A stretch of 40,613 nt of DNA from a phage. Positions 25,129 through 35,300 of this stretch are shown here, in pieces. Numbering within the stretch: the first letter of the stretch is position 1; every line of letters starts with the position of its first letter. A program made the translations under genes and the position numbers. The stretch lies in sequence record PZ019082.1; one strand, 5' to 3'. Under the pieces are notes generated by a model, which saw nothing but the letters and a program-made list of their open reading frames with translations, searched no databases and was not told the DNA's origin.

Positions 25129-25413
25129 CTAACTATAATAGTTAGCTATTAGGTCGTCAACCTGTTTAAACGAACCAACGACAAAAACATTCGCGCCACG
25201 TTTACGCATCCGCGCGTGTTCACGTAGCTGGTGCGGGTCTGGCTTCGTGTTTTCGTCTTTCTTAACCTCGACGAACCAGACTATGCCGCCGGGGAGAATT
25301 ACCAGCAGGTCAGGAGCGCCTGAGCGCCCCTCGTAAGACAGCTTACGAACGAGGCCACCAATGGCCTCGAACATCTCTTTTGCGTATTTCTGAATCTTGC
25401 CTTCCGGGGTCAT
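25129..25413 (-). CDS. VRR-NUC domain nuclease
   Basis: PD-(D/E)XK-like motif PDLLV ... FVEVKK; 94 aa. Confidence 0.65.
   Translation of the reverse strand: MTPEGKIQKYAKEMFEAIGGLVRKLSYEGRSGAPDLLVILPGGIVWFVEVKKDENTKPDPHQLREHARMRKRGANVFVVGSFKQVDDLIANYYS
25132..25160 (-). promoter_or_regulatory. sigma70-like promoter TTGACG-N17-TATAGTTAG
   Basis: Minus-strand TTGACGacctaatagctaactatTATAGTTAG; lies within the 3-prime end of the VRR-NUC coding sequence; same architecture as 28687-28715 and 30806-30834. Confidence 0.5.
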
Positions 25414-30774: not shown

Positions 30775-30805
30775 TTGTTTCTCTCCTCTCGTTTGGTATG
30801 GGCTA

Positions 30806-30834
30806 ACTATAATAGCGAACTATTCACATGTCAA
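30806..30834 (-). promoter_or_regulatory. sigma70 consensus promoter TTGACA-N17-TATAGTTAGCCC
   Basis: Minus-strand TTGACAtgtgaatagttcgctatTATAGT followed by conserved leader AAACGAGAGGAGAGA. Confidence 0.65.
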
Positions 30835-30838
30835 TGGG

Positions 30839-30867
30839 CTTTTCTAAAATAATTAATATGGTACTAT
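30839..30867 (+). promoter_or_regulatory. putative promoter for XRE regulator gene (-10 TACTAT, weak -35)
   Basis: gTACTATTCACATATCAA upstream of RBS AAGGAG and ATG 30899; AT-rich upstream region. Confidence 0.35.
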
Positions 30868-30898
30868 TCACATATCAACTGACTAAGGAGTAATTGAC

Positions 30899-31114
30899 AT
30901 GCAACCATCTGAACTAGGCATTCGTGTAGAACAACGCCGTAAAGAACTCGGCATCTCCCAGCGCCGTCTGGCTGTCCTGACCGGGGTTTCCCAGGGCGCG
31001 ATTAACCAGCTTGCGCTCGGGGTAACTCAGGACGTCCGCCCGGCGACGCTGTTTAAACTGGCGGAAGTGCTGCAAGTAGACGCCAAGTGGCTGGCGTTAG
31101 GTGAAGGGGCTTAA
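30899..31114 (+). CDS. XRE-family helix-turn-helix transcriptional regulator (71 aa)
   Basis: HTH segment ISQRRLAVLTGVSQGAINQLALG; RBS AAGGAG; followed by terminator. Confidence 0.7.
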   Translation: MQPSELGIRVEQRRKELGISQRRLAVLTGVSQGAINQLALGVTQDVRPATLFKLAEVLQVDAKWLALGEGA

Positions 31115-33736: not shown

Positions 33737-33905
33737 CTTTTACGTTCTCCTTAATCCAAGCCTCCACGGTAGCGCGGTCAAATGTGCCTGGCTGCCGGTA
33801 GCCGTTAATAACCCGGCAACACTCGGGGAACTTACCTGACCGAAGCCAGCGATTAAGTGTCATAGGGGAAACTCCGATTAAGTCTGCTACTTCTTTCTGT
33901 GTCAT
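33726..33905 (-). CDS. AlpA-like / excisionase-like HTH DNA-binding protein
   Basis: MTQKEVADLIGVSPMTLNRWLRSGKFPE matches AlpA-type HTH pattern; ATG at 33905 with RBS AGAGGG (track start TTG 33935). Confidence 0.55.
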   Translation of the reverse strand: MTQKEVADLIGVSPMTLNRWLRSGKFPECCRVINGYRQPGTFDRATVEAWIKENVKDAN

Positions 33906-33934
33906 TTTACACACCCTCTTTATCAAGTGAAACA

Positions 33935-33963
33935 ACTATAACACCTACAATAACTAAACACAA
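33935..33963 (-). promoter_or_regulatory. putative promoter TTGTGT-N17-TATAGT for minus-strand regulatory/primase operon
   Basis: Minus-strand motif 29 nt upstream of ATG 33905; divergent from plus promoter 33968-33995. Confidence 0.4.
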
Positions 33964-33967
33964 CCTA

Positions 33968-33995
33968 TTGACAAAATAAAATGTAGCTGTAAAAT
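33968..33995 (+). promoter_or_regulatory. putative promoter TTGACA-N16-TAAAAT
   Basis: Consensus -35 and good -10 on plus strand, about 370 nt upstream of the first plus-strand early gene. Confidence 0.4.
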
Positions 33996-34200
33996 CAACG
34001 TATCGAAGGACCTTAGTTCAGAATTACTTAGAAACATTATTCTTAAGTCTCTGGTGACCAAAGCCCGGCCCATAAAGGACGGGCGCTGAGAGTCACTTCG
34101 ACAACGTTAGTATCTAAGTTTCCTCAAAGTAACAGCAAGTAGCAAGAAAGCCCCCGTCTATTTAAATTTTGCCATATGGTATAAATCATTGATTTGCAAG

Positions 34201-34215
34201 CTCACTCACTCACTC
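34201..34215. repeat. short tandem repeat (CTCA)n, about 3.75 units
   Basis: ctcactcactcactc directly visible. Confidence 0.6.
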
Positions 34216-34300
34216 TTGGTGCCTTCGGCACCACGTTCGTTTCGTTTCGCTCGCTACCCCCATTAAACGAAAGAATCACAACGGCAACGTAACTATTCTC

Positions 34301-34329
34301 TTGCACACCCCAACATAATAGGATACTAT
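34301..34329 (+). promoter_or_regulatory. early promoter TTGCAC-N17-TACTAT
   Basis: Followed by TCACTTATCGG and leader AACGAGACAGAGGAG; 40-bp element repeated on minus strand at 12851-12890. Confidence 0.6.
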
Positions 34330-34363
34330 TCACTTATCGGAACGAGACAGAGGAGTGAGGGTT

Positions 34364-34549
34364 ATGTTTAAGAAGGGTCAGTTGGTGAGAATTTTGGAGA
34401 CAGGGGGGTTAGCGGTTATTTCATTCGCACACCACAAAGAATGTAGTGTTTATTTTGCAAAATCTTTAACGGGGTCCTATCTCACCGTGTTATACGCACA
34501 AGATATGAAACTCATCGGCAACAATTTTAAATTCAAAGGGGCGAAGTGA
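34364..34549 (+). CDS. hypothetical early protein (61 aa)
   Basis: ATG with RBS AGGAG 8 nt upstream (track ORF starts at GTG 34355). Confidence 0.5.
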   Translation: MFKKGQLVRILETGGLAVISFAHHKECSVYFAKSLTGSYLTVLYAQDMKLIGNNFKFKGAK

Positions 34550-35208: not shown

Positions 35209-35281
35209 TAGTGTCGTCAAAAAGCGACACTTCCCTAAGACACTGTTGGGTCAGGAATAAAGTGTCTCCAGTTAGCGACAC
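35209..35281. promoter_or_regulatory. array of AGTGTC / GACACT half-sites forming two inverted repeats plus an extra half-site
   Basis: AGTGTCG-N8-CGACACT (35209-35230), AGACACT-N16-AGTGTCT (35237-35266), CGACACT (35275-35281); just upstream of promoter 35301. Confidence 0.45.
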
Positions 35282-35300
35282 TTTGCACCAATAAAATTTA

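Follow-up and report, generated by a model that had tools for sequence, protein, structure and literature searches.

A plus-strand segment without conserved open reading frames and its predicted early leader RNA in the divergent control region of a Kagunavirus-like phage

The central divergent control region of sequence record PZ019082.1 was analyzed, with attention to positions 33,906-34,300 and the beginning of the plus-strand genes that follow; the whole stretch of 40,613 nt is called the window here. The region lies between a minus-strand operon (HTH_17 protein, ORF91 and helicase/primase) and a set of small early genes on the plus strand. An 861-bp segment around it matches siphophages of the Guernseyvirinae, the closest being the Escherichia phages K1G, K1H and K1ind2/3 and Kagunavirus LM02P1, and from these matches the window is taken to be the genome of a virulent Kagunavirus-like phage of this subfamily. 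The 861-bp segment gave zero matches among 5,426 complete E. coli genomes, and positions 33,996-34,262 showed no homology to E. coli genomes or plasmids. In the GenBank records of Kagunavirus and Jerseyvirus, this place carries nothing, spurious small open reading frames (ORFs), or bare promoter and terminator predictions, and no transcript maps, origins or small RNAs (sRNAs) were found in the literature on these phages. The features of the region are the following (MFE, minimum free energy; SD, Shine-Dalgarno sequence; IHF, integration host factor; SL, stem-loop).

33936-33964, minus strand: promoter of the HTH-ORF91-primase/helicase operon, with a -35 TTGTGT (33964-33959), a 17-nt spacer and an extended -10 TGtTATAGT (33944-33936)
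33968-33995, plus strand: promoter P_strong, TTGACA-16-TAAAAT, an 11/12 match to sigma70; predicted start A34002
34003-34101, plus strand: 5' structured domain, with SL1 and a two-tier SL2 in the MFE and centroid structures
34182-34194, minus strand: IHF-core-like motif AATCAATGATTTA (WATCAR-N4-TTR), a perfect consensus match at the junction of the 5' and 3' modules; candidate only
34196-34216, plus strand: 5' arm (anti-SD) of the predicted long-range helix, GCAAGC-U-C-A-CUCACUC-A-CUCU with (CTCA)3, pairing with 34349-34367 in the MFE and centroid structures
34217-34233, plus strand: hairpin T1, UGGUGCC-UUC-GGCACCA, a 7-bp stem with 5 G-C pairs, dG -10.5; terminator-like in the scan, a candidate weak terminator or one branch of a three-way junction
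34239-34249, plus strand: 3' arm GUUUCGUUUCG in the (CGTTT)n repeat and U-rich tail, forming 11 consecutive pairs (2 of them G.U)
34270-34293, plus strand: conserved box AAAGAATCACAACGGCAACGTAAC, about 93-100% identical across Kagunavirus and Jerseyvirus (Salmonella) records, one copy per genome
34301-34329, plus strand: promoter P2, TTGCAC-17-TACTAT, with the palindrome AATAGGATACTATT (34317-34330) over its -10; predicted start A34336
34338-34367, plus strand: 3' partner of the helix in the P2 leader, with the SD GGAG (34352-34355) within GAGGAGUGAGGG and the AUG at 34364
34364-34549, plus strand: first early-right gene, 61 aa, phrog_12538 (a PHROG without assigned function), its stop overlapping the start of the next gene

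Sites matching sigma70 at 11 or more of the 12 positions were found three times on the two strands of the 40.6-kb window, against 0.35 expected from Markov shuffles. All three are intergenic and P_strong is one of them. Its -10 lies 369 nt before the ATG at 34364, in agreement with the first-pass annotation of this DNA, which had been made from the sequence without database searches and placed a plus promoter about 370 nt ahead of the first plus-strand gene. The promoter of the minus operon was read directly from the sequence, the consensus scan having given only a weaker overlapping alternative (33974-33947, 9/12). Its -35 and -10 are kept in 9/9 type-A relatives (see below), with a variable spacer. 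The two promoters had been described as divergent, overlapping and arranged like a genetic switch. The divergent pair is present, but the promoters are placed back-to-back rather than overlapping, as their -35 hexamers are separated by 3 bp (about 9 bp between centres). The switch was not supported at 33935-33995, where the operator-like palindrome AATAGnnnnCTATT, found at P2, is absent from both P_strong and the HTH promoter; operator control thus falls on P2 and not on the back-to-back pair.

The layout of the region was then compared among 58 distinct homologous intergenic sequences from GenBank phages, IMG/VR contigs and metagenome contigs. The order was identical in all 58 loci: a promoter, approximately 200-270 nt without a conserved ORF, a GC-rich hairpin, the 24-nt box and P2. 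A TTGAC(A/T)...TAnnnT promoter was located about 60-110 bp from the left gene in every locus. The sequence that follows it belongs to at least four mutually unalignable 5' types, named A (the window and the K1G group), B (many E. coli phages and Jerseyviruses), C (Schulenburg, RP180 and others) and D (fBC-Eco01), and the promoter occupies the equivalent place in all of these types. The hairpin modules were sorted into T1 (the window), T1b, T2 and T3, and the combinations A+T1, A+T2, B+T1b, B+T2, B+T3, C+T1, C+T2, C+T3 and D+T3 were observed, so that three or four kinds of hairpin module and the 5' modules reassort freely among related phages. In the record of fBC-Eco01, a host promoter, a terminator and a "phage promoter" (corresponding to P2) are annotated in the same order (PMC9825357).

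The absence of a credible ORF after P_strong, already proposed in the first-pass annotation, was upheld by this comparison. ORF positions and lengths were not conserved in the relatives of any module type, differing even within each type, some members contained no ORF at all, and single-nucleotide indels were frequent. Short reading frames of both strands, among them the two annotated in phage Schulenburg, were considered and rejected, as their position and length were not conserved and indels break them. An extended -10 promoter (TGgTATAAAt) noticed by eye at about 34178, inside the segment, was also discarded because it is not conserved in the closest A+T1 relatives.

Instead of coding capacity, the relatives share structure, and the region is most likely structured as plus-strand RNA. 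In the window, SL1 (34026-34048) is formed by ACUUAGAA/UUCUUAAGU, and SL2 by an outer stem, GGUGAC (34053-58) with GUCACU (34092-97), and an inner one, GCCCG (34063-67) with CGGGC (34080-84). SL2 is kept in three type-A variants whose stems differ (e.g., GGGUACU/AGUACUC and GCCCCGC/GCGGGGC), with z -2.7 to -3.8. The type B modules contain a rod, about 115 nt long, that begins a few nt after the predicted start, and 97.4% of its cells are paired in an alignment of 17 sequences; in 7 pairs, 34 cells are changed on both sides. The covariation of this rod was 0.316, compared with 0.117 +/- 0.014 in shuffled alignments (0/500), and partners that had been slid reached at most 0.121. The helix closing its tip passes through the series GUAAG/CUUAC, GUAAU/AUUAC, GUAAA/UUUAC, GUGAG/CUUAC (G.U) and GUGAG/CUCAC, and the hypervariable tip takes the same fold in 15/15 variants, the plus strand giving the more stable structure in every one of them. 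Conserved structure, with stems kept by compensatory changes, is accordingly present in the related genomes. MFE z-scores are not decisive for the strand, since most module types are structured on both, and RNAalifold was hampered on the type A and type C alignments by MAFFT register shifts.

No known RNA family was recognized in the region. Searches with the 4227 models of Rfam gave no hit at the gathering score in the window, the best at E<=10 being a 16-bit ctRNA fragment, and nothing relevant in seven related loci, types B, C and D included; the tRNA/tmRNA scan returned none. Two resemblances noticed by eye were discarded: the inner stem of the K1G type (CCCCGC/GCGGGG), likened to the repeat stem of type I-E CRISPR, is absent in the variant of the window, and lambda boxA/boxB do not fit in order and sequence.

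The segment leads to T1, which had been taken for a cUUCGg hairpin (GGTGCC-TTC-GGCACC, 34218-34232). The hairpin itself stands and extends to 7 bp, but not its tetraloop: the loop is a UUC triloop, because the closing pair C6-G11 puts C5 opposite C12, out of register for C(UUCG)G. In one relative (L158; L numbers are our handles for the loci), the stem is AGGCCCC-UGC-GGGGCCU, fully compensated and with both flanks identical, and the flanks are nearly invariant across 13 variants although the stem is swappable. The T1 tail, CGUUCGUUUCGUUUCG, passes the simple scan with 5 T in 8, and its U-tail score is 0.94 compared with 1.4-4.7 for three control terminators, a poorly calibrated score; the d'Aubenton-Carafa-style terminator score was used only qualitatively, as it was negative for two of these three controls. 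No U run longer than 3, as in an Hfq-type poly-U tail, follows T1. Among the other modules, T3 scores as a plausible intrinsic terminator and the extended T2 ends in UUUU, whereas the T1 tail is U-rich but interrupted; partial termination and substantial read-through are therefore expected in this phage. Downstream of T1 the RNA is C-rich and G-poor (C/G of 2-3 over 34206-34340), a composition that might also suit the action of Rho on untranslated RNA.

Both repeats reported next to the hairpin were found. The (CTCA)n at 34201-34215 is a tandem repeat, (CTCA)3.8, with 2, 3 or 6 copies in relatives, mostly 3, and the CGTTTCGTTTCG repeat is present at 34238-34249 and contains (CGTTT)2. These odd repeats flanking T1 are predicted to be the two arms of a long-range helix hiding the SD and the AUG of the first early-right gene. 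The 5' arm pairs with AGAG-GAGUGAG-G-GUU-(A)-UGU at 34349-34367 and the 3' arm with CGGAACGAGAC at 34338-34348. The resulting helix has 29 pairs (25 Watson-Crick and 4 G.U), without internal mismatches and with only single-nt bulges, and T1 forms a side branch. The fold of the read-through RNA (34193-34372) gave z -3.74 (0/200 shuffles), and the RNAalifold consensus of 13 T1 phages recovers the helix.

The specificity of this pairing was computed by cofolding the T1 region (34193-34250) with every 34-nt segment of the window, on both strands, and subtracting the fold energies of the partners themselves (ddG). The leader-SD-AUG target ranked first of 40,421, with a ddG of -31.1 kcal/mol; the next reached -25.1, and the mean was -5.8 (standard deviation 3.1). 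An RNAduplex scan without intramolecular folding was discarded as misleading, since GC-rich segments open the T1 hairpin, and the cofold ddG was used instead. Modules of 115 nt from several phages were also cofolded with their own leaders, using 1,481 random segments as background. Four T1 phages were tested: the three with at least 3 CTCA repeats reached ddG values of -26.5 to -28.0 (0/1481 in the background), and the fourth, L001, with two repeats, -19.7 (6/1481). T1b gave -17.6 (4/1481). The predicted P2 start at 34336 lies two nt before the 3'-partner segment (34338), and the predicted unpaired probability of the SD was 0.00 in the read-through RNA vs. 0.96 in the P2-initiated RNA. By computation, the helix would cover SD and AUG in the long but not in the short transcript, as expected of an SD-sequestering leader.

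A different arrangement was observed in the A+T2 phages L002-L004 of the K1G group. In the segment UUUUACCCUCCUUCAUAAGCC, equivalent to 34166-34185 of the window, these carry ACCCUCCUUC where the window has GCCAUAUGGUAUAAAUC. ACCCUCCUUC mimics the anti-SD of 16S rRNA, and its partner in the MFE fold is the SD of the first gene (unpaired probability 0.26).

The promoter that had been placed at 34301 was found there. P2 is a weak sigma70 match, but it is part of a 44-nt module, TTGCRCACCCCAAYATAATAGGRTACTATTCACTTATCGG, occurring three times in the genome (34297-34342, 35298-35345 and, on the minus strand, 12893-12850), each time preceded by at least one hairpin. The promoter copies start at 34301 (plus), 35302 (plus) and 12890 (minus), and the third drives a minus-strand gene island within the structural region. 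The palindrome AATAGnnnnCTATT has 12 sites in the window, 8 of them perfect, against 0.89 expected, and these are always at or near promoter -10 elements. The listed 14-nt sites are:

12861, 25137, 28692, 30811, 30855, 34317, 35149 and 35318: AATAGnnnnCTATT

It overlaps the -10 of all P2 copies and also marks promoters at 25137, 28692 and 30811/30855. The AATAGnnnnCTATT sites have the look of operators for a single dimeric regulator, probably the XRE/Cro-like protein (gene at 30899-31114), because the 30811 and 30855 sites flank the start of its gene.

Another compact control region with divergent promoters was noticed at 30800-30900, immediately ahead of the XRE gene. It comprises a near-consensus minus promoter, TTGACA-17-TATAGT (30834-30806), a plus promoter, TTCACA-16-TAAAAT (30823-30850), with interleaved -35 regions, and two operator palindromes 44 bp apart. 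This arrangement fits the layout of a genetic switch better than the promoters at 33936-33995. In addition, two tandem 23-nt hairpins (AGTGTCG...CGACACT) were detected at 35210-35283, after the fourth small gene and before the second copy of P2, with no complementarity to the downstream leader.

Among the functions first suggested for the segment (a noncoding RNA, an origin or a regulatory leader), these observations favor a plus-strand noncoding RNA or leader: a strong promoter, no ORF and a terminal hairpin are present in every relative examined, the stems show compensatory changes, and the repeats are the arms of the predicted SD/AUG helix. With moderate confidence, we propose an ORF-less early plus-strand RNA or leader with a weak terminator and an anti-SD helix that silences read-through transcripts, while P2 gives a translatable mRNA. 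Promoter quality and conservation, the absence of ORFs, the conserved structure with its compensatory changes, and how specific and conserved the helix is were computed directly; from these results we infer transcription itself, the efficiency of termination, the translational effect and any role of the 5' domain. The host sigma70 RNA polymerase would start at P_strong, at about 34002, transcribe the structured 5' domain (34003-34101) and an A/U-rich middle part, and reach T1 (34217-34233), a short GC hairpin with an interrupted U-tail. There, acting as a weak terminator, T1 would end part of the transcripts as a noncoding RNA of about 240 nt and let the rest read through. In the read-through RNA, (CUCA)3CUCU and GUUUCGUUUCG would pair with 34338-34367 in the 29-bp helix, leaving the first early gene translationally silent. 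P2, with its operator-like palindrome, would start at about 34336 inside the loop, and its 28-nt leader would contain almost only the 3' arm, so that this mRNA would be open and translatable. The released RNA could also act in trans on the P2 mRNA through its exposed (CUCA)n arm.

Several observations weigh against this proposal. The T2 modules show the same topology but pair weakly (ddG -6 to -14), in competition with their own extended stem, T3 barely pairs with the leader (ddG -2 to -10), and no comparable upstream complement was found for the other two P2 copies. Hiding the SD with an anti-SD arm is thus not what the conserved layout does in general. In the 13 T1 phages, the helix has no double compensatory change, and mostly single changes compatible with G.U and few breaks were seen; judged from the alignment, this variation is conservation and not covariation. 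The terminator score by which T1 was judged is poorly calibrated, and the model does not account for the 5' domain or the conserved box. When 34002-34250 was folded alone against shuffles, the minus strand gave z -3.4 to -4.1 vs. about -1 for the plus strand. Moreover, the sole RNA-seq paper on Guernseyvirinae that was found, on phage vB_Eco_K1B4, reports genes only (PMC12645636).

The fold of the minus strand is the starting point for another explanation, namely that the segment is the long structured 5' leader of the HTH-primase operon, transcribed from an unrecognized promoter near 34310. The z of -3.35 to -4.07 for 34002-34250, together with an SL2 that is marginally more stable on the minus strand in the window, would agree with it, but a credible minus promoter is missing on the right, where the best candidate by eye (TTCCGA-16-TATTAT) has a -35 of only 3/6. 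In addition, U-rich hairpin tails are found on the plus strand only, type B hairpins are more stable on it in 15/15 variants, the G.U intermediates of covarying pairs fall on it, and the 29-bp helix would have four A.C mismatches on the minus strand; such a transcript is highly improbable. An independent, abundant trans-acting sRNA of about 240 nt, ending at the hairpin module and acting on other RNAs or proteins, for instance on the P2 mRNA via its exposed (CUCA)n arm, on host targets or as a defence decoy, with read-through being irrelevant, is unlikely. In its favor, promoter and hairpin enclose an ORF-less unit in all relatives, T3 scores as a plausible terminator, the extended T2 ends in UUUU, and the centroid structure of the free RNA leaves the (CUCA)n arm unpaired. 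The existence of four unrelated 5' modules and of rods with hypervariable tips also suggests selection that is either diversifying or relaxed. This has to be set against the poor U-tract of T1 in the window (0.94), which has no Hfq-type poly-U tail, against a target search that pointed to no site beyond the adjacent leader (the next best, ddG -25.1, lies inside a coding region), and against the lack of similarity to host or plasmid sequence. A broader version, in which all Guernseyvirinae would carry a highly expressed trans-acting noncoding RNA gene heading the early-right operon, either as a decoy or inhibitor of host defence or RNA processing or as an anti-SD regulator of early genes, is a speculative extension that we regard as distinctly unlikely.

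The element could also act as DNA, as a replication origin or as single-strand initiation (ssi) hairpins for the adjacent helicase-primase, activated or primed by transcription from P_strong. The region adjoins the replication operon and lies at the minimum of the cumulative GC skew (about 34000), but this is the point at which gene orientation flips, and the orientation change explains the skew equally well. Most module types fold well on both strands compared with shuffles, and an AT-rich stretch is present at 34155-34195. The junction motif (T/C)AAGnnn(C/T)TGAT(A/T) is conserved and agrees with the core consensus of IHF; most type A, B and C relatives have a perfect or WATCAG-type match 90-126 bp upstream of the box, and the window has 5 IHF-core-like sites vs. 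2.2 expected. Moreover, the helicase is RepA(RSF1010)-like according to the annotation of Schulenburg and carries AAA_25. In RSF1010, oriV uses the ssi hairpins ssiA and ssiB, with the RepA helicase and the RepB' primase. A RepA-like helicase encoded beside a region with many hairpins on both strands is common to the two systems; here, in contrast, iterons are lacking, module type and primase do not co-vary, and the polarity of promoter and hairpin is clear. The only tandem repeat is (CTCA)3.8, accompanied by one degenerate 25-nt repeat pair, and no DnaA box was found within 33900-34365. Residues 1-340 of the primase are 95-98% identical among phages with the unrelated modules A, B or C, and the box is conserved in Jerseyviruses although the N-terminal half of their primase is only about 56% identical. 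The polarity of promoter and hairpin, and deviations limited to G.U, agree with an RNA made from one strand. A DNA-level element is rather improbable and the suggestion of an origin was not supported; an origin of a structure-only or R-loop type is possible.

Similarly, the segment might have no dedicated function and be a recombination hotspot of promoter and terminator cassettes, in which the strong promoter simply adds to transcription of the early-right genes, the hairpins serve as insulators, and the complementarity between T1 and the leader is left over from an inverted duplication. The mosaic structure, with the module combinations described above, would agree with this. Some phages have additional genes or noncoding modules at this very position, and cassettes of a hairpin and P2 recur in the genome, as with the PeSL cassettes of T4-type phages (PMC2839356). 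A hotspot alone would hardly account for an ORF-less unit in 58/58 loci, for compensatory changes that maintain stems, for T1 flanks nearly invariant in 13 variants while the stem is swappable, or for helix deviations of the G.U kind only instead of random decay, and we consider it improbable.

The proposed leader resembles several known systems in mechanism or organization. The lambda pL-N leader, as Kameyama and co-workers are said to have described in 1991, contains nutL and an RNase III-sensitive structure covering the ribosome-binding site of N. The two would share a strong early sigma70 promoter, a structured untranslated leader of a few hundred nt and a long-range helix over the SD and start codon of the first gene. 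By contrast, the region here has no sequence or Rfam relation to it, lacks an N-like protein as well as nut boxA/boxB in the right order, and a second promoter inside the loop would yield an open mRNA. In the early region of T7, the promoters A1-A3 are followed by a leader of about 430 nt and the RNase III site R0.3 before gene 0.3. That virulent phage also combines near-consensus host promoters with a long noncoding leader bearing rod-like hairpins before small host-takeover genes, but its promoters are tandem and its RNase III sites defined, whereas a single strong promoter, a hairpin module and a repeated operator-bearing promoter, without homology, are seen here. In the lambda pR'-tR' region, a constitutive promoter gives the short noncoding 6S RNA, which ends at a terminator just upstream of a long operon. 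The RNA proposed here would likewise end before an operon; neither a Q-like antiterminator nor a qut site was identified, the genes that follow are early and not late, and the terminator is weak.

The put RNA of HK022 is a cis-acting antiterminator (PMC9378689). Two stem-loops directly after an early promoter (here at about +25 to +96), with structure conserved over sequence, are a resemblance only, and put has about 70 nt compared with a domain of about 100 nt here. The promoter-early stem-loop (PeSL) elements are mobile regulatory cassettes of T4-type phages (Arbiol et al. 2010; PMC2839356). Their repeated cassettes of a hairpin and an early promoter beside hyperplastic, mosaic segments are comparable to the P2 module, present three times here; the phage family and the sequence are different, the segment bounded by the cassettes has no ORF here, and recombination is inferred from mosaicism only. 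Taken together, the mechanism would resemble the early leaders of lambda pL-N and T7, without sequence homology to them, and the mosaicism that of PeSL.

If the proposed leader is correct, the main immediate-early promoter of these phages has been identified, the odd simple repeats around the hairpin are explained, and the first early genes would be translated only from the operator-controlled P2, the constitutive outer promoter giving a silent RNA. Kagunavirus and Jerseyvirus are common candidates for therapy and chassis for synthetic biology in which the early control region is unannotated, and the result may be relevant to genome engineering for choosing payload insertion sites and safely deletable segments. 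The mosaic of structurally conserved modules unrelated in sequence is a clean natural data set for the evolution of phage RNA structure. Were the broader noncoding RNA gene true, at least four unrelated reassorting types with hypervariable tips would form a previously unrecognized class of phage sRNA under diversifying selection.

Regarding the neighboring genes, the minus operon encodes, leftwards, a 59-aa HTH_17/excisionase-like protein, a 91-aa protein and a 756-aa helicase-primase with AAA_25 (phrog_3228). The true ATG of the HTH gene is at 33905, with the ribosome-binding site (RBS) AGAGGG on the minus strand. On the plus strand, rightwards, four small proteins without known function are followed by lysis genes and then, across the end of the window, by structural genes. 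No Pfam family was found for the product of the first early-right gene.

Additional observations were made on the segment and its relatives. The fold of the minus strand over 34002-34250 comes partly from (UGAG)n pairing with (CUUGCU)2 via G.U, outside the favored model. A degenerate 25-nt direct repeat of the box is located just after SL2 (34089-34113 vs. 34272-34296, 76% identity; about 60% in the K1G type). In L015 and L025/L080, an unrelated left-hand gene stands in place of HTH_17 and the type C module is retained; this module is therefore without dependence on one HTH protein. In L006, L013, L021 and L026, at about positions 480-720 of the intergenic sequence of each, P2 and the usual first gene are separated by an inserted gene for some 70 aa (MNKATASVVSAIKEVYGIDISERV...) that has an RBS of its own; the SD of the usual first gene is kept downstream of the insert. 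Finally, the Jerseyviruses L113 (Salmonella phage Kenya-K6, 770-985) and L022 carry a degenerate P2, an additional noncoding module (about 120 nt) that contains a separate hairpin (CACTTGCC...GGCAAG), and then a second P2-like promoter before the first gene.

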